Of a stretch of DNA of 64,000 bases, positions 49,747-64,000 are shown one piece after another (position 1 is the stretch's first letter; each line of letters begins with the position of its first letter). The position numbers were made by a program, and so were the translations under genes. The notes beneath the pieces are model-generated. The model did not search any database. It had not been told where the DNA came from and worked only from the letters and a program-made list of their open reading frames with translations. The stretch is from Escherichia coli (GTDB lineage: Bacteria; Pseudomonadota; Gammaproteobacteria; Enterobacterales; Enterobacteriaceae). The DNA is taken from the NCBI RefSeq assembly GCF_003334815.1, contig NZ_QOWO01000013.1; one strand, given 5' to 3'.

Positions 49747-50519
49747 GCGTTTTTCTCCCTCGAATGCTCATTATGCTCACCGGGCAGGCGGGTAATCCGT
49801 GCGTGGCGAGCCTGATCTTCATCGAATCGTTTCATGGTGGTGTGAACAAAACTAAGGTGCGCCATCATTGCTTTACGCGCCCCGTCAGCATCACCGGCAA
49901 AAATGGCGTCAATGACAGCCTGATGTTGTTCGGTCAGTTGTGAAAAAACCGGTGGCACCAGATACATCCGCTGACGGCTATGCTTCACTGAGGATTGCAG
50001 GACATCGAAGAAACCGCGCATGGTTTGCAGCAGCACGATGTTATGTGAGGCTTCGGCAATCGCCAGATGAAAACGAACGTCCGCTTGTGAGGCGATATCC
50101 GGGTCTTCACTTAGCGTTGCTTCAAAGCAAAGCTGAATCTTTTCTTTGTCGCCAGGTGTGGCGCGCATTGCCGCATGCCATGCGGTGCTGGCTTCAATGG
50201 CGTAGCGGGCTTCCAGAATATCGAAACTGTAATCCGGATCATCGGCCATCAGTGTTTTTAGCGGCTGGACGATGTTTTGCTCCGACCATGTGTCATGACG
50301 CCAGCGAATAAACGTCCCGCCGCCGCGTCGACTGAGCAGCACGCCTTCACTCACCAGTTTTGCCAGCGCCTCGCGCAGTGAATTACGTGATACGCCGAGT
50401 TGCATCGCCAGTTGGCGCTCAGCGGGCAACTTCATGCCCGCTTCCAGGTTTTTTTCATCAATCAGCGCCCGCACACGATCGGCAACCTCGTCTGACAGGC
50501 GTCTGGGTAAAACAATCAT
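49743..50519 (-). CDS. lldR: GntR-family lactate operon regulator LldR
   Basis: ORF track 49743..50534; ATG 50519 gives 258 aa and overlaps the lldP stop. Confidence 0.9.
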
Positions 50520-52174
50520 TAAGGAATCATCCACGTTAAGACATAAGCCTGAAGCGTGGTGATCACGCCCACTATACAGGTGAAGATCAGGCTGTGTTTG
50601 ACAGTAAAGCGGAACAAATCAGACTCTTTGCCCACCAGGCCTACCGCCGCACAGGCGATAGCGATAGATTGCGGGGAGATCATCTTACCGGTGACGCCAC
50701 CGGTGGTATTGGCGGCAACCAGCAACAGATCAGAGACGCCAATTTGTTGTGCTGCGGTGGCTTGCAGCGCGGCGAACAGGGCGTTAGATGAGGTATCCGA
50801 CCCGGTCAGGAATACCCCCAGCCAGCCGAGGAACGGCGAGAAGAAGGTGAATGCATGACCGGTGTGCGCCAGTGCCAGCGCCAGTGTTGATGACAGTCCG
50901 GAATAGTTCGAAATAAAGGCGAATGCCAGCACCATACCGATGGAGTAGATGGGCAGAGCCAGTTCTTTCAGCGTGCTGCCGAAGGTGCTGATAGCGTCAG
51001 ACGGTTTCATCTTCAGCCAGACAATCGAGAGCAGTGCAGCAAACAGAATGGCGGTGCCGGTGGCAGAGAACCAGTCAAACTTAAACACGGCGGCATAGGC
51101 TGTAGCCTCGCTGACCACTGGCGGCATACGGGCAACCAGTTTATCGAGGTACGGCACCGGAATATTGATCACCCACTCATACAGCGCGCCACCCGATGCG
51201 AACAGGGCTTTAAACGGCGGGATACTCCACAGTGTTACGGTAGCTGTCAGGAACAGGAACGGTGTCCAGGCACGTAACACCTGACCCGCAGTGTAACCGG
51301 TGTGGGCCAGCGTCATATCAACCTGTGACGCCCCCAAATCACCAAAACGGAATACACGCACTGGCTGCCAGCGTTTGAGGAACAGCGTCAGGCAGAGCAG
51401 TGATACCAGCGAAGAGATAATGTCCGGCAGCTCCGGCCCAATGAAGTTAGAGCTAAGGTACTGAGCGATGGCAAACGAGCCGCCCGCAACCACGACCGCA
51501 GGCCACGTCTCTTTGATACCGCGCCAGCCGTCCATAATCGCCATGATCCAGAACAGCACGATAATGGTCATAAACGGTAGCTGCCGCCCCACCATCTGAC
51601 CAATCTCAAAGCTGTCGATACCTGTTACCTGTCCGGCAACCAGGATTGGAATGCCCATCGCACCAAATGCCACTGGCGCGGTGTTAACAATCAGGCACAG
51701 CCCGGCGGCGTACAGCGGTTTAAAACCCAGGCCGACCAGCAATGCGGCGGTAATTGCTACCGGTGCGCCAAAGCCTGCGGCTCCTTCAAGGAACGCGCCG
51801 AAACAGAAACCGACGATCAGCATTTGCAGACGCTGGTCAGGGGTTATCGAAAGAATAGACGAGCGAATGATGTCAAACTGCCCGGTTTTCACCGAGATCT
51901 TATAGACGAACACCGCTGCAATAATGATCCACGCGATGGGCCACAACCCGTAGAAGAAACCATAAACCACCGAGGCCAGCGCGTTAGCGACCGGCATTTT
52001 ATAGAACAGCAAAGCCACGGCAAGGGCGATTGCCACCGTCCACGAGGCGGCGACGTATCCTTTCAGTTTGAGCTTAATCAGCGCAAAGAAGAAAAACAGG
52101 ATGGGAAGCGATGCTATCAGACTGGAAAGCCAGATATTCCCGGCGGGATCGTAGTTTTGTTGCCAGAGATTCAT
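50519..52174 (-). CDS. lldP: L-lactate permease
   Basis: ORF track 50519..52201; conserved start [13 protein letters not shown] at ATG 52174 (551 aa). Confidence 0.92.
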
Positions 52175-52475
52175 TGCAGGTCTCCTGGAGTCCACGCACA
52201 TCGTGTAATGAGTCTGTTGCTCATCTCCTTGTCACACGTTGTGTAAAAGTGGCACTGCCAATTGTGTTGTGTAGGGATAATGACAATGAATGGTTAACTA
52301 AATGTTATGTATTGGCAACATTGATGTGAGTTTTAATTGGGAAATTGTGAACCAGAGGTCAGATAAGCGAAGAATTGGTAGGGCCAATTCTTGTGGGGGG
52401 AGATGTCTGGTAAAGAAAAGGGCAATCCTCATCAGAGAATTGCCCTTAGGTTGTTGATCCAGAGCGCCTTATCTT

Positions 52476-52509
52476 GCCGGATGCGGCGTGAACACCTTAC
52501 TCGGCCTAT
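52476..52509. repeat. REP element
   Basis: GCCGGATGCGGCGTGAACACCTTACTCGGCCTAT close to the REP consensus; downstream of yibL. Confidence 0.6.
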
Positions 52510-52545
52510 AGGAATGTGCAGAATCACCCTGTAGATACTGTGTTC

Positions 52546-52908
52546 TTAAAACGCGGTCTTTGAAAACCCAGTCATCTCCTGCAGGCCCATTTCGCGGCCC
52601 AGTGCGGTCATTGGGTGCACAACGACCAGTCCGCGAACACTTTTCTTCAGCTTGCCCATATCAGCCTGCTCTTTTTTGGTAATTGCGCGCTGGAATGGCA
52701 TCTTCATCAGCTTCTGTGCTTCTTTACTCAGTTTTTGGCTATGAACTTCACGCAGGCGAGCAATTTCTGCTTCCAGCGTGGCTTTCTCTTTTTCCAGCTC
52801 GGCATATTTGTCTGCGGCTTCAACCAGCGAAAGATCGGCCTGCTGGTGGCGGATGGCGTCCAGGCGATCGCTGAGACGTTTGATTTCGTTTTTTTCGACT
52901 TCTTTCAT
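52546..52908 (-). CDS. yibL: uncharacterised protein YibL
   Basis: ORF track 120 aa. Confidence 0.82.
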
Positions 52909-53192
52909 GTGATGGCTTCTGATAAAGATAAATTTATAGCCCCTAGTATGCGCGACCAGGTGCTTTGTTCACAACTAATGACATTGTAATAGTTCTGTAA
53001 CGTAATCATTAACATGCTCAAAAACTACGCAATTCGTTGATTAATTAAGAAATCTATAGAAAAAAGATAATAAACAGCAGCGGATGATTATTGAGGATTC
53101 AGCACGTTTTCCTTAATGTCATCTTTACCGGGAACCTAAACTAAAATTGGCGGCCGCGCATTCCCGGCGCGGGGTAATACGGAGATATCATC

Positions 53193-53402
53193 ATGGGCAA
53201 ATTAGGTGAAAACGTTCCGCTTCTTATCGATAAAGCCGTAGATTTCATGGCATCAAGCCAGGCGTTCCGGGAGTATCTGAAAAAACTTCCTCCCCGTAAC
53301 GCGATTCCGTCCGGAATACCCGATGAAAGCGTGCCGTTATATCTACAACGTCTGGAGTATTATCGTCGGCTTTATCGGCCGAAGCAGGTAGAGGGGCAGT
53401 AA
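53193..53402 (+). CDS. yibT: small protein YibT
   Basis: ORF track 69 aa; GGAG 9 nt upstream of ATG. Confidence 0.7.
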
Positions 53403-53413
53403 GCAGACGTTGC

Positions 53414-54001
53414 TTACTTTTGAAAGGCTTTTTTTAAGCTGATTTTGGAAATCAGCTCAGTCAGTGAAAGGACCATTGTTGATCGCACAGCCTGTTGATA
53501 GCGCTGAATTTGCATTGCATACAAACTGGAGTCTGCTGGTTCAAACTGTGGCGGCGGTGGTAACGCCGCCACGCAGTGCAGTTCACCAAAGGGTCCAAGG
53601 ATTTCGTCGTCGGTAAAGGCGTACTCGTTGCCGTCGTGATTTAGCTCTTCACGCAATGCCATCAGCAGTTCCGCATCTTCGTATTCCTGGCGGTTAATGA
53701 CGCCCAACCCGTAAATGAGTTTTAAACGCACAGAAAGATCGCCCAGCGGACCATCGCCGTCGAGTAACGGTTCTACAGCATACTTCACCGCGTAATCGTC
53801 TTTGCGGAATACCTGAAGCACCAGAAGATTTACCGCCTCGGTCAGGAGCTCGACGGCGGTGATCAGAAAGCTTCGCACGGTTTTGCCAGCATTCAGACGC
53901 TCAAGCACACGGTTTTCAAAGGCCTGGGTTTGTTCCATTGTTGCCTGCATATCTGACAATCTGTTATTCGGGCGCAGGGTGTCCTGCGCCTGGTCCACCA
54001 T
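53414..54001 (-). CDS. mtlR: mannitol operon repressor MtlR
   Basis: ORF track 195 aa; start overlaps mtlD stop (TAATG). Confidence 0.9.
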   Translation of the reverse strand: MVDQAQDTLRPNNRLSDMQATMEQTQAFENRVLERLNAGKTVRSFLITAVELLTEAVNLLVLQVFRKDDYAVKYAVEPLLDGDGPLGDLSVRLKLIYGLGVINRQEYEDAELLMALREELNHDGNEYAFTDDEILGPFGELHCVAALPPPPQFEPADSSLYAMQIQRYQQAVRSTMVLSLTELISKISLKKAFQK

Positions 54002-55149
54002 TATTGCATTGCTTTATAAGCGGTTACCGCCTCGGATACAACCTCGCTGTTGGCATCAAGACCGGAAATCTGTGCCAGCGCCGCCTGCGGACCTTTGTCA
54101 GCGATCAGTGCTGCCAGTTCCTGAGCCTGCGGATCATCTTCACTGCGGAAGTGCATTGCAGCGGCAATACCTTCAATCAGGTTTTTATGTGGCAGACCAT
54201 ATTCCAGCGTACCGAGCAGTGGCTTGATCAGACGGTCGCCAGCACTCAGTTTACGCAGTGGCTGACGGCCTACGCGCTCTACATCATCTTTCAGATACGG
54301 GTTCTCAAAACGGCCGAGAATTTTCTGGATGTACGCCGCATGCTTGTCAGCGTCAAAGCCGTAGCGCTTGATCAATACTGCACCACTTTCTTCCATCGCA
54401 CCTTTTACCACCGCGCGGATTTTCTCGTCGAGAATCGCGTCACGAATGGTCTGATGACCGGCCAGTTTTCCGAGGTACGCGGTTATAGCATGACCCGTGT
54501 TCAGGGTGAAGAGTTTACGTTCGACAAATGCCATCAGGTTGTCGGTTAACTCCATGCCTGGGATGTTCGGCAGTGCGCCTTTGAACTGCGTTTTATCGAC
54601 AATCCATTCGCTGAAGGTTTCTACCGTCACTTCCAGCGGATCGTTAGTTGCCGAAGCCGAAGGCGGTACGATGCGGTCAACGGCGGAATCGACAAAGCCA
54701 ACGTGTTCTTCTACCCACGCTTTGGCGTCTTCCGGCAGGGCGTTCATCACATGGCCTTTCAGCTGCGTGGTACCGCGTACCATGTTTTCACAGGCGATGA
54801 TGTTCAGCGGGGATTCATTACCTTGTTCTTTACGTTTCACCAGCCCTTTGGCGATTGCCGGAGCAATACGTTCCAGCACAACCGGGCCAACGGCGGTAGT
54901 GACTAAATCAACCTGAGCAATCAGATCAACGACATCATCACCAATGCTGCTGACAGCATTGACGCCGGAAACGGTATCTACCTGCTCGGTTTCACCAACC
55001 ACATGTACCTGATAGCTATGACGGGCATTCAGGGCATCAAGTACCACCTGATTGACATCGGCAAACGTCAGTTGGATACCCGCGTCTGCCAGCAGTTTAC
55101 CGATAAAGCCACGACCGATATTACCTGCGCCAAAATGTAATGCTTTCAT
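54001..55149 (-). CDS. mtlD: mannitol-1-phosphate 5-dehydrogenase
   Basis: ORF track 54001..55467; conserved Rossmann start [17 protein letters not shown] at ATG 55149 (382 aa); the upstream extension in the track runs through REP repeats. Confidence 0.94.
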
Positions 55150-55180
55150 AGTATTAACCTTCATCAATGTTTTTACCCGA

Positions 55181-55375
55181 GAGGGCTGGGGTGAGGCTTT
55201 TCCCTCACCCAAACCCTCTCCGTGAGGAGAGGGGCAGCGCCGGATGCGGCGTAAGCGCCTTATCCGGCCTACAAGAACGTGCAAATTCAACAAATTGTGA
55301 TGCATCCTGTAGGCCTGATAAGCGTAGCGCATCAGGCAATTAACCCCACCTTCTCCATGTGGAGAGGGTGGGATT
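55181..55375. repeat. BIME-like cluster: CCCTC/GAGGG hairpins flanking two inverted REP elements
   Basis: hairpin about 55201-55234, REP 55241-55273, inverted REP 55305-55337, hairpin about 55346-55372; between mtlA stop and mtlD start. Confidence 0.7.
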
Positions 55376-55378
55376 GGA

Positions 55379-57292
55379 TTACTTACGACCTGCCAGCAGT
55401 TCCAGCACTTCATCCACGCTGGTGGTGTGTGCCAGACGCTCGATGACGGACTCATCATCCAGTGCATTGGTCAGGCTGGTGATAACCTGAATGTGCTCGT
55501 TGTTACGGGCAGCAATACCAATCACCAGACGGGCAATGTCATCTTCTTCTTCACCGAAGCGCACGCCTTCCGGGTACTGGCAGAACACGACGCCCGTTTT
55601 CAGTACGCGATCTTTCGCTTCAACCGTACCGTGTGGCACCGCGATAGACTCACCCAGATAAGTCGGGGTCAGTTTTTCACGATCCAGCATCGCCTGAACG
55701 TATTCCGGCTCAACGTAACCGCCTTTCACCAGCTGCTCGCCAGCAAAACGAATCGCTTCTTCTTTGGTTGCCGCTTTGCGACCGAGGAAGATGTTCTCCG
55801 CGCCTAGCTTGAACAGGTTAGCACTGGAATCGTCAAAGCTGTCTTTCAGGCTGTCTTTTACTTTCTCTTCGTTTGCCGTGTGGCGTTGGGCAGCAACCAG
55901 ACGTTCGGTCAGGCTGGTGTACAGGCCGCTGTCGAGGAAGTTGGTCAGCGAAATATGCTGTGCCTGCGGAACCTGGCGCATAGCGCGTTCGGTCAGGTCA
56001 CGGTGAGTGATGACGAGGTCCACATCTGGCGGCAGGTTGTTGATCGCGCTGTTAGTAACAGAAATCTGCGACAGACCTGCATCCTGAATTTTCTTACGCA
56101 GAACGCCTGCGCCCATCGCACTGGAACCCATACCGGCGTCACAGGCAACGATGATTTTACGTACGTGGCTCAGGTCGTTAGTCACATCGCCAGCAGACAG
56201 CGGAGATGCGCCTTTAGACTCAGCTTTCATGTCCTGCATACGACGAGTTGCTGCTTCAATATCATCTTCTTCTTTCACTTTGCTGGTTTTCAGCAAAATA
56301 GCAGAGACAACGAAGGAGACAGCCATCGCCGCACACACACCCGCGATGTTAGCGAAGTAAGCACCTTTTGGTGTCATCGCCAGTACAGCAAGGATAGAAC
56401 CCGGAGATGCCGGAGAAACCAGACCACCGCCCAGGATAGTCAGCGTGAACACGCCAGTCATACCGCCGAGGATGACTGCGAGGATCAGACGCGGATTCAT
56501 CAGCACATACGGGAAGTAGATTTCGTGGATACCCCCCAGGAAGTGGATGATTGCCGCACCGCCCGCAGACTGTTTAGCGCTACCACGACCAAAGAACATG
56601 TACGCCAGCAGCACGCCCATACCTGGACCTGGGTTAGCTTCAATCAGGAAGAAGATTGATTTACCCAGTTCATGGGACTGCTGAATACCCAGCGGCGAGA
56701 AGATACCGTGGTTAATGGCGTTGTTGAGGAACAGGATTTTCGCCGGTTCAACAAAGATAGACGCCAGCGGCAGCATGTCATGGACAACCATGAAGTTAAC
56801 GCCCGCAGCCAGCATTTTGGACAGGGCTTCAACAATCGGGCCAATGCCGAGGAATGCCAGAATAGCGAGGATCATCCCGATGATGCCTGCGGAGAAGTTA
56901 TTCACCAGCATCTCAAAACCGGATTTGATCTTACCGTCTACCCAGCGGTCGAAGTGCTTAATGCACCAGCCGCCCAGCGGACCTGCAATCATAGAACCGA
57001 GGAACATCGGCATGTCTGCGCCGACGATAACGCCCATGGTGGTGATGGCACCGACTACGCCGCCACGTTCGCCGCCTACCAGCTTACCACCGGTATAACC
57101 GATCAGCAGCGGCAGGAGATAAGTGATCATCGGCCCGACCAGCTTCGCCAGCGTCTCGTTCGGTAACCACCCTGTTGGAATAAATAACGCGGTGATGATA
57201 CCCCACGCGATAAACGCGCCGATATTTGGCATCACCATGTTGCTGAGGAAACGACCAAAGCTTTGCACTTTGATCTTAATATCGGATGACAT
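55379..57292 (-). CDS. mtlA: PTS mannitol-specific EIICBA
   Basis: ORF track 637 aa [27 protein letters not shown]... Confidence 0.95.
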
Positions 57293-60744: not shown

Positions 60745-60925
60745 TAATCCCAAGGGGATCGATTCCAGAAATCGGGTTCAACGGATACTGATAAAAATTC
60801 CACCTACCTTCCAGCCCAATCGGAGCCTGAGTGTTATACCGCCCCTGCTGCGGTTAATGTTACCGATAATAGTTATAGTACAGCCCTGATTCATCATCAT
60901 ACTACTGCTGCGGCAGTCTGATGAA
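60745..60925 (-). pseudogene. degenerate Rhs core C-terminal fragment with in-frame stops
   Basis: Reverse translation gives [54 protein letters not shown], a decayed copy of the rhs core end ([20 protein letters not shown]...[24 protein letters not shown]). Confidence 0.6.
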
Positions 60926-60934
60926 CTATTGCTT

Positions 60935-61407: not shown

Positions 61408-62352
61408 CTATCTTATATCACTGGGTTTTTCTGGCGTACCTTGCATATTAGAAATGGGGTGCCCAGATGGCCCATATGTTATCCAATTACCAAGGTCTTT
61501 TGTTGTTATAGCCATTAGATCCTTATTTGAATTAAGGTTCGTTGGTGCTGTTAGCACTGTATCCATTTTTAACTTACCATTAGTTCCTCGCCCCCACCAC
61601 GTCCATAGCGTGTCAGGTCCTATTACATTTGTATGTAACTCTTTAGCTAATTGGCTAGCAAATGAATTTTGTCCTTTACCTGTATTACAAGAAAATAACC
61701 AAACTGTCATCCCATCTTTATAATTCCCATCAAATTTAATTAGATATGCTAGATCTTTAGCTGTCATGATACTGCGCGTTGCGGATTCAATAGATGTGGG
61801 GGTACCATGCCCCCCGATTGTGAAAACGCCTGGGATATTAATCTCATCAGCTACAGAATGGATAAGATCACTTTCGGGGTATAAATTTATATCAACCAAA
61901 CCTTGCGGATCTACATTTATGACCGGATTCAACGGATACTGATAAAAATTCCATCCCCCCTTCAGTCCAATCGGATCCTGAGTGATATACCGCCCCAGCA
62001 GCGGGTCATAATAGCGGTGGCGGTTGTAATACAGGCCGGACTCCTCATCATACTGCTGACCCGGCAGGCGAATGAGCTGCTGCAGATGATGCGGGTTCTC
62101 ATCACTCAGCAGGTTGCCCCATTCATCATATTCTGCGCACCACGCTGTTGCCCCTTCCGTGCTGATGAGCGCCAGCGGCAGGCCGCGATGGTCGCAGTGG
62201 TACAGGTGGATTTTTCGCGCCGGCGTGTACACCGGGTCCATCTGGTTTTGCATCTGCTCCACCGTCAGGCCGCACGATGCCAGCCAGCGGCGGCTTTCCT
62301 CACTCACCCGGTCAGCCAGGATTTCACTTTCCAGCCGGTCGAGCATCTGCAC
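61408..62352 (-). CDS. yibJ: orphan Rhs C-terminal module YibJ: rhs core 3' fragment fused to an alternative C-terminal tip
   Basis: ORF track 314 aa (GTG 62352 or ATG 62346); first ~150 aa nearly identical to the rhsA core end, diverging after DPQGL. Confidence 0.8.
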
Positions 62353-63256: not shown

Positions 63257-64000
63257 CTATCTTTTTTTATCGTTTGACTGTCTGGAGTGACGACAATTCC
63301 AGGCTTTCTGTGTGCTTTTTGCATCTTTAGCACTAATATCACCACAATCAATTAGTTCCTGAAGTACGTCACATCTGTCGGGTTTTTTCCCATCACTCCA
63401 GAATCTGTCATTTATTATGTCATTGACACGATCAGTTATCCCTGTGTCTGCAACATTTCCACGAGAAGCTATCATTGTTATATCTAATGCTAGTCCCGGA
63501 TTATTCAATATTAGAGAGTCAAATATTCTTTGTGATGCTGTATCGTTCCACCATTTTGTCAATGCTTTTGCAGCATTATCATCTGCTTGCTGCTGTGCAG
63601 GGCTTTTGGGCCATGGAATTGGCAAGGGGAATGGTCTAGGAAAAACTTCTAACCCCAGAGGATCTGTATTCGTAACTGGATTCAACGGATACTGATAAAA
63701 ATTCCATCCCCCCTTCAGCCCAATCGGATCCTGAGTGATATACCGCCCCTGCAGCGGGTCATAATAGCGGTGGCGGTTGTAATACAGGCCGGACTCCTCA
63801 TCATACTGCTGCCCCGGCAGGCGGATAAGCTGCTGCAGCTGATGCGGGTTCTCTTCATTCAGCAGGTTGCCCCATTCATCGTATTCTGCGCACCATTCTG
63901 TTGTCCCTTCCTTGCTGATAAGGGCCAGCGGCAGGCCGCGATGGTCGCAGTGGTACAGGTGGATTTTTCGCGCCGGCGTGTACACCGGGTCCATCTGGTT
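63257..64000 (-). CDS. rhsA: RhsA, 3' end only (core C-terminus, DPLGL junction and C-terminal tip); gene continues beyond window end
   Basis: Open reverse-strand frame from the window end to TAG at 63257-63259; ...[44 protein letters not shown]... Confidence 0.88.

Follow-up and report, generated by a model that had tools for sequence, protein, structure and literature searches.

What does the small protein YibT of Escherichia coli do, and to which proteins is it related? We addressed this question in a 64,000-nt stretch of E. coli DNA (RefSeq assembly GCF_003334815.1, contig NZ_QOWO01000013.1), referred to below as the window, where yibT lies on the + strand between the divergent gene yibL and the convergent gene mtlR. 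An initial annotation, made from the sequence alone, had described yibT as an unannotated-looking open reading frame (ORF) whose function was not evident. We find that yibT is a real, conserved, stress-induced protein-coding gene. By sequence comparison its product is remotely homologous to the DNA polymerase III subunit theta (HolE) and to the HOT protein of phage P1 and, more distantly, to GlgS, and it probably acts as a non-enzymatic adaptor that docks on a larger partner protein.

yibT is a known gene encoding a conserved protein

The window spans the mtl-lld region of the E. coli chromosome, with lldP, yibL, mtlR and mtlD on the - strand and yibT on the + strand. The yibT coding sequence (53193-53402, +; WP_000517100.1) starts with an ATG at 53193 and comprises 69 codons followed by a TAA at 53400-53402, as stated in the initial annotation, which had also named the genes correctly and described the divergent yibL/yibT and convergent yibT/mtlR layout. 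A query of 875 nt covering yibL, the spacer and yibT matched the annotated gene with 100% DNA identity, and full-length matches were found in 5411 of the 5426 complete E. coli genomes of RefSeq; those shown were annotated as yibT, 'protein YibT'. The ORF is thus anything but unannotated. Comparison with YibT of E. coli K-12 (b4554; WP_000517100.1) revealed no difference: it is the same gene, with the same sequence, the same position (mtlR-yibT-yibL-lldP) and the same published regulation by sigma-S, PhoB and Rob, the window carrying the commoner spacer allele with an intact Pho box. The region corresponds to the already known divergent yibL/yibT promoter region and the known gene yibT, which annotation has not missed. 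As the outcome of a genome scan it carries little weight, being an annotated gene of known regulation that was recognised correctly.

The length of the yibT ORF is by itself not above chance, as many ORFs of 30-140 aa are found nearby, including one of 124 aa antisense to yibL. Its coding status is established by annotation, conserved position, the ratio of non-synonymous to synonymous substitution rates (dN/dS) and published proteomics, and not by ORF length. Besides Escherichia, Salmonella and Citrobacter, a few further Enterobacteriaceae have homologues; the alignment of 22 sequences contains 25 invariant columns, including an invariant 10-residue core motif. The order yibL(-)/yibT(+)/mtlR(-) is kept in Salmonella, Citrobacter and the enterobacterial strain RIT691, with convergent stop codons 5-15 nt apart, and comparison of yibT with these orthologues gives a dN/dS of 0.03-0.11, the synonymous sites being saturated. 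The protein has been found by liquid chromatography-mass spectrometry in Salmonella (PMC5437024), by native top-down mass spectrometry of E. coli K-12 colonies, where it was among the 22 proteins seen and was extracted as a soluble monomer (PMC9196203), and by pulse-labelling proteomics of persisters (PMC6414554). The concern that the ORF might be neither translated nor conserved, raised in the initial annotation, fails on both counts: it is kept and constrained in at least four enterobacterial lineages, and published work has detected its product in Salmonella and in E. coli.

Relationship of YibT to theta, HOT and GlgS

YibT has a mass of 8.0 kDa and an isoelectric point of 9.4. We compared it with protein families by means of profiles built from its orthologues. 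A YibT-only profile of the 22 orthologues matches phage P1 HOT (1SE7/2IDO) with an E-value of 9.8e-5, colinearly over residues 15-60, and 12 of these orthologues match the Pfam family DNA_pol3_theta (PF06440) at E<=1e-3. Exhaustive search of 1.84 billion representative proteins with the YibT-only profile retrieved just 80 sequences, so the family is small. These 80 include intermediates of 63-81 aa towards theta/HOT (e.g. P0174) and towards GlgS (e.g. P0186, E 1.5e-4). P0186 shares 41% identity with E. coli GlgS (E 7e-11) and matches the NCBIfam GlgS model with an E-value of 1.9e-13, still below its 105-bit cutoff, while P0174 (L011:3055-3276) matches both the NCBIfam theta (5.9e-9) and GlgS (5.5e-3) models. 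A wider profile of 37 sequences found HOT (4.6e-10), theta (~3e-4) and GlgS (1RRZ, 3.5e-4) in the PDB; within this wider set, Pfam theta is matched by 22 sequences and Pfam GlgS by 5. Finally, hhalign of the YibT-only alignment against theta, HOT and the intermediates together gave a probability of 98.8%.

Across the whole set, the invariant or nearly invariant residues are D17, F18, A20, S21, A24, F25 and E27 in helix 1 and R53, L54, Y57, R58 and Y61 in helix 2, and the residues conserved in the YibT clade occupy columns that are conserved in theta and HOT. YibT and the theta/HOT proteins (PF06440; PDB 2IDO, 1SE7, 2AXD, 5M1S) are of similar size (69 aa for YibT, 76-83 aa for the others), are colinear over residues 14-60, share the pattern VD(F/L)xA(S/A)xxA(F/Y)xE ... 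(F/Y)xxRLxx(Y/H)R, and are all restricted to enterobacteria and their mobile elements. They differ in that YibT scores well under the cutoffs of the family (Pfam, 12.8 bits; NCBIfam, no match, with a cutoff of 97), has a proline-rich loop with invariant P33 and P39 where theta has a short middle helix, is regulated by sigma-S, PhoB and Rob, and is abundant in stationary phase. GlgS (ScoR; PDB 1RRZ), with 66 aa, is likewise small, helical and enterobacterial, and the intermediates connect it to YibT. However, it lacks several YibT-invariant residues, S21 being replaced by R, L54 by Y and R58 by C, and its direct similarity to YibT is weak; the analogy gives no mechanism.

Searches with YibT itself returned no match to the GlgS profiles (Pfam PF08971, NCBIfam NF002793), no meaningful match in PHROGs or PADLOC, and nothing in the PDB by phmmer. 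Judged from these profile comparisons, YibT is remotely homologous to theta/HOT and, at a greater distance, to GlgS, and it belongs to neither family by curated thresholds. The theta-like assignment is not new, since InterPro IPR009052 is listed for Salmonella YibT (PMC5437024); our literature search found no paper exploring it.

The intermediates P0174, P0186 and P0188, in the range of 63-81 aa, were all found with the YibT profile, and some of them match the theta and GlgS models both. This suggests a single superfamily of theta/HOT, GlgS and YibT, and no paper stating this was found in the literature.

Predicted structure of YibT

The fold of YibT was predicted with AlphaFold from a wide alignment that contained neither theta nor HOT itself. 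The model has a mean predicted local distance difference test score (pLDDT) of 77 and a predicted template modelling score (pTM) of 0.63, and consists of two helices (residues 8-28 and 44-61) joined by the proline-rich loop. Comparing it to the PDB with Foldseek, the top matches were HOT bound to epsilon (2ido_B and 2ido_D; template modelling scores 0.70 and 0.65), followed by theta (5m1s_F); the margins over generic helical hairpins are small. The predicted fold is that of the small helical bundle represented by 2IDO chain B and 5M1S chain F. The fold match corroborates the sequence evidence, and would not stand alone. The initial annotation was right that the sequence does not give the exact role of YibT, but profile and fold comparisons do place the protein in the theta/HOT/GlgS group.

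Proposed role of YibT

Theta and HOT are non-enzymatic and, according to the literature, bind and stabilise epsilon. GlgS is a small sigma-S-dependent regulator, and NCBIfam now names it 'cell surface composition regulator'. The mRNAs of both yibT and glgS collapse in a rob mutant, and deletion of either gene raises butanol tolerance; for yibT, this tolerance is reversed by plasmid complementation (PMC7537768). Published data also show that deletion of yibT changes surface hydrophobicity, raises the share of unsaturated fatty acids and improves acetoin tolerance. YibT and GlgS have in common the loss of mRNA in the rob mutant, the butanol tolerance upon deletion and probably effects on surface properties.

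On this basis we propose, by analogy with these relatives, that YibT is a stress-induced, non-enzymatic adaptor that docks on a partner, and we give this class of mechanism a probability of about 0.7. YibT is a soluble, basic 8-kDa protein produced chiefly in stationary phase and under stress; its predicted promoter, of the sigma-S type, lies about 55 nt before the ATG, and expression shows strong Rob dependence and, in the window allele, an extra PhoB input. Within the enterobacterial theta/HOT/GlgS group it is a divergent member, with two predicted long helices joined by a proline-rich loop. Having no enzymatic activity, it would act stoichiometrically: we infer that the conserved face formed by the two helices docks on a larger partner protein, which would be stabilised or modulated. 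A downstream effect on envelope and surface physiology would be expected, as for GlgS, because regulation and deletion phenotypes are common to both proteins. YibT would then be better studied as a partner-binding adaptor, as its grouping with theta/HOT and GlgS indicates, than as the 'membrane protein' of the solvent-tolerance literature.

Several points weigh against this proposal. E. coli YibT alone matches PF06440 only marginally (independent E-value 0.1, 12.8 bits) and matched no NCBIfam model, and its Citrobacter orthologue reaches 22 bits against the curated NCBIfam theta model (NF008207), whose cutoff is 97. With theta alone or GlgS alone, hhalign gave probabilities of just 10% and 6% (E 0.006); the family link therefore rests on the intermediates and on HOT. 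A first AlphaFold (AF2) model, made from close orthologues only, had a pLDDT of 65 and meaningless Foldseek matches and was replaced by the one described above, in which theta's short middle helix appears to be replaced by the proline-rich loop. The promoter elements and transcript start are predicted from conservation, consensus scans for sigma-70 promoters and marboxes being not significant, and the sigma-70 scan, run over 52400-53700, found no site. The phenotypes of YibT come from few strain-engineering papers and are modest.

The adaptor could also be a more specific one. YibT might be a functional analogue of theta and HOT: in cells that are in stationary phase or starved of phosphate, it would bind epsilon (DnaQ) at the N-terminal exonuclease domain, or else a related DEDD exonuclease, and would stabilise or retune proofreading. 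We consider this unlikely, though it is the best of the alternatives. The nearest solved relatives, HOT and theta, both bind epsilon186; the YibT model superposes best on epsilon-bound forms (2ido_B and 5m1s_F); the residues conserved in the YibT clade are those conserved in theta and HOT; and mobile elements carry both branches (P1 has HOT, 4329 plasmids have theta homologues and 385 small plasmids have YibT-like genes). On the other hand, the phenotypes on record are those of solvent tolerance and of surface or lipid composition. The loop region is strongly unlike that of theta. YibT is also abundant, being among the 22 proteins in native mass spectra of colonies, and a cell contains far fewer copies of the DNA polymerase III core. 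A broader version of the same idea, to which we give equally little credence, is that theta, GlgS and YibT are three chromosomal descendants of one small helical fold in E. coli, and that YibT and its plasmid-borne relatives still bind epsilon or another DEDD exonuclease, so that stress signalled by sigma-S, PhoB and Rob would retune proofreading via a 'stress theta'. If YibT did bind epsilon, general stress and phosphate starvation would be linked to replication fidelity, and the copies on small plasmids would be explained.

Less probable still is a role of YibT as a membrane-associated protein with direct control over the fatty acid composition of membranes, as it is labelled in the butanol and acetoin tolerance papers. 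Deletion does raise the unsaturated fatty acid share, surface hydrophobicity and solvent tolerance, and both complementation and overexpression reverse the tolerance. However, YibT is hydrophilic (grand average of hydropathy -0.53; highest 19-residue Kyte-Doolittle value 0.65), and a Kyte-Doolittle scan revealed neither a hydrophobic membrane-spanning or anchoring segment nor a signal peptide. The protein is extracted as a soluble monomer and has the predicted fold of a soluble adaptor; the 'membrane' label goes back to associations in the STITCH database, and the lipid changes may be indirect.

Convergence of yibT with mtlR

The adaptor proposal places the function of yibT in its protein, and the 3' end of the gene bears on a different possibility. 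The yibT stop is separated by 11 nt (53403-53413), as the initial annotation had it, from the stop codon (53414-53416) of mtlR, which encodes the 195-aa mannitol operon repressor on the opposite strand (53414-54001, -). A hairpin with the sequence GTAAGCA-GACGT-TGCTTAC spans this junction (53399-53417) and contains the stop codon of yibT in its 5' arm and that of mtlR in its 3' arm, with z-scores of -2.2 (+ strand) and -3.7 (- strand). UUUU follows it on the + strand and no U tract on the - strand, and from its sequence it is likely the yibT terminator. The hairpin is significant in E. coli, weakened in the second E. coli allele described below, and not conserved in other genera. The mtlR-yibT pair is listed as a convergent 'excludon' by ExcludonFinder from overlap in RNA-seq data (PMC12288877). 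It resembles excludon pairs in that two convergent genes lie 11 nt apart and overlapping transcripts have been reported; it differs in that mutual repression at mtlR-yibT is hypothetical and that the intergenic hairpin is not conserved outside E. coli.

The locus might thus act mainly as RNA: transcription of yibT and mtlR would run into each other, stress-induced yibT would lower MtlR, and the protein would be secondary. The short convergent gap, which is 5-15 nt in other genera, the shared hairpin that offers no U tract to mtlR and the ExcludonFinder entry all fit this scheme. We nevertheless judge it very improbable, given the strong purifying selection on the amino acids, the invariant 10-residue motif and the abundance of the protein. 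Moreover, a plasmid-carried ORF complements the deletion, so the protein matters, and plasmid-borne yibT-like copies exist without an adjoining mtlR. An antisense effect is conceivable in addition to the role of the protein. That yibT is a chance reading frame and no gene, as the frequency of ORFs of similar length in the region and the empty consensus promoter scan might suggest, is already refuted: the ORF is annotated, keeps its position, has a dN/dS well below 1 and complements the deletion genetically, and its product has been detected by proteomics.

Promoter region and regulation of yibT

We return to YibT as a stress-induced adaptor and to the signals that would control it. The spacer between the yibL ATG (52908, -) and the yibT ATG (53193) spans 52909-53192 and contains both divergent promoter regions; its length of 284 nt, given in the initial annotation, is exact. 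Its description as AT-rich stands in so far as its G+C content is lower than that of the window (39.1% vs 48.2%), but the deviation is mild: among 284-nt windows the spacer ranks at just the 20th percentile. The G+C content is 34.2% in the 240 nt that precede the predicted yibT transcript start. The composition of the spacer is ordinary for an AT-rich promoter region.

To identify conserved elements, six spacers were aligned: those of the two E. coli alleles, Salmonella, two Citrobacter strains and RIT691. Four conserved islands emerged, namely TAGTATGCGCG, AGCACGTTTTCCTTAATG, CCTAAACTAAAAT and GGAG. The last of these is a Shine-Dalgarno sequence (53181-53184, +) located 8 nt before the yibT ATG and invariant in all six sequences, which bears out the plausible ribosome-binding site of the initial annotation. 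The conserved block CCTAAACTAAAAT (53135-53147, +) holds CTAAACT (53136-53142, +), a sigma-S-type -10 element with a C at -13 followed by TAAACT (C(-13)/TAnnCT pattern); Escherichia, Salmonella and Citrobacter all keep it in the form CTAAACT or CTACACT. From this block the yibT transcript is predicted to start near 53149-53151, with a leader of about 43 nt. The predicted -10 agrees with the reported sigma-S control in both species: the small-gene group to which the Salmonella orthologue belongs is under tight sigma-S control and has sigma-S-type -10 regions, and the E. coli orthologue is sigma-S-activated (PMC5437024).

The best-conserved block of the spacer, AGCACGTTTTCCTTAATG (53101-53118, +), overlaps the -35 position and is a candidate activator site. 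It resembles a Mar/Sox/Rob box (GCAC + 7 nt + YYTAAT) and lies 18 bp from the -10; marboxes of class II promoters overlap the -35 position. A match with 3 mismatches to the marbox consensus AYnGCACnnWnnRYYAAAYn is found at 53099-53117 (+), but such matches occur at chance level in the window (131 seen vs 149 expected). Two observations make AGCACGTTTTCCTTAATG a lead for a Rob-type activator site, its conservation between genera and the Rob dependence of yibT mRNA, which drops to about 2% in a rob mutant (PMC7537768). The emptiness of the sigma-70 scan fits activator- or sigma-S-dependent promoters, without being positive evidence for them.

The PhoB box TGTAATAGTTCTGTAACG (52985-53002), made of two TGTAA repeats 11 bp apart, is identical to a site published for yibT/yibL from chromatin immunoprecipitation sequencing of PhoB, which activates yibT about 2-fold (PMC10294691). 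It has the features of Pho regulon boxes, two 7-bp repeats with an 11-bp period bound by PhoB upstream of the gene. The box is situated 135 bp upstream of the conserved yibT -10, and therefore probably serves a second, unmapped promoter, whose PhoB-dependent start might lie near 53020. On the yibL side, the block TAGTATGCGCG (52944-52954), invariant in the six aligned spacers, reads CGCGCATACTA on the - strand, about 30 nt before the yibL ATG, and is a plausible -10 of yibL (CATACT).

Near the predicted 5' end of the yibT mRNA, a G+C-rich stem-loop CCGCGC-ATTCCCG-GCGCGG (53154-53172, +; centroid -11.7 kcal/mol) was considered as a structural RNA and rejected, its energy being no better than that of shuffled sequences (z +1.65). 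Salmonella and Citrobacter have a stem of other sequence in this position; RIT691 has no stem there. A predicted pairing site for RydC (-24 to -10) overlaps the 3' arm of the stem-loop (PMC6354806). Rfam at permissive thresholds found nothing inside the spacer or yibT.

Spacer polymorphism within E. coli

The central part of the spacer is strongly polymorphic between the two E. coli alleles (52950-53135 in the window vs L002:1905-2090). Of 5426 genomes, 3352 contain a 60-mer of the window type around the Pho box and 1172 contain one of a second type, while the rest remain unmatched; at least three haplotype classes exist. In the second allele the right half-site of the Pho box is lost, and the box is intact only in the window type; it is absent in Salmonella and Citrobacter. 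Conversely, the 120 nt from the -10 into the yibT ORF are identical between the two E. coli alleles. Control by PhoB thus looks like a recent, strain-limited addition, as judged from the distribution of the box, and findings made in K-12 on this control cannot be carried over to about one third of E. coli strains.

The polymorphism extends into yibL (52546-52908, -), which encodes a 120-aa YibL family ribosome-associated protein (DUF2810; NF008244, 190.9 bits vs a cutoff of 110). The two E. coli alleles of this gene (52546-52908 vs L002:1501-1863) have 21 synonymous and no non-synonymous differences, and encode identical proteins. Their synonymous divergence (dS) of 0.33 lies between about a quarter and nearly half of what separates them from Salmonella or Citrobacter. 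In the single genome with the second allele that was inspected (L002:1-942), a gene for a YadA-like autotransporter and a DUF3251 gene come after yibL, where the window has lldP. These observations suggest that the second yibL allele is an old or imported haplotype linked to an island.

Copies on plasmids and in phage records

A YibT-like gene is carried by 385 plasmid records. Its product is 72% identical in amino acids to YibT, its dN/dS against the chromosomal copy is 0.19, and its DNA is closest to the Escherichia copy. The plasmids inspected are small (1.3-5 kb), and 298 of the 385 records are typed as mobilizable; the two examined (L003:22-231 and L004:1507-1716) both carry a MOBQ relaxase, and one is typed Col156. 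The hosts are E. coli, Klebsiella and others. The plasmid gene has its own upstream region and a similar translation start, and has already been labelled YibT in one published plasmid survey. Retention of an accessory gene on such small replicons suggests a selective benefit.

Theta (HolE/HOT-like) homologues were found on 4329 of 72,556 plasmid records, mostly conjugative Klebsiella plasmids, where they are annotated 'DNA polymerase III subunit theta'. In two phage records, MG065691.1 and MG065686.1 ('Campylobacter phage'), a stretch encodes a protein with 100% identity to E. coli YibT; most likely this stretch is E. coli DNA within the assemblies. The phage collection also includes Salmonella genome contigs filed as phage records.

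Neighbouring features

On the far side of yibL, the ORF listing places lldP at 50519-52201 (-). The interval between lldP and yibL contains a sub-threshold Rfam match to the Salmonella small RNA STnc380 (52348-52456, +; 36 bits vs a gathering score of 60, E 5e-5), an element resembling repetitive extragenic palindromes and naRNA4 (52466-52506, -) and, on the yibL strand, a 13-bp terminator-like hairpin (52418-52447, -). On the other side of yibT, the mechanical ORF listing gives mtlD 488 aa (54001-55467, -), as compared to 382 aa for the annotated MtlD; the extra N-terminal reading crosses the mtlA-mtlD intergenic region and is an artefact of the listing, not a longer gene. Beyond mtlA, a direct repeat family with three copies (60749-60932, 61898-62197 and 63651-63950) lies among - strand ORFs; the copies are 72-92% identical and spaced by 1151 and 1753 nt.

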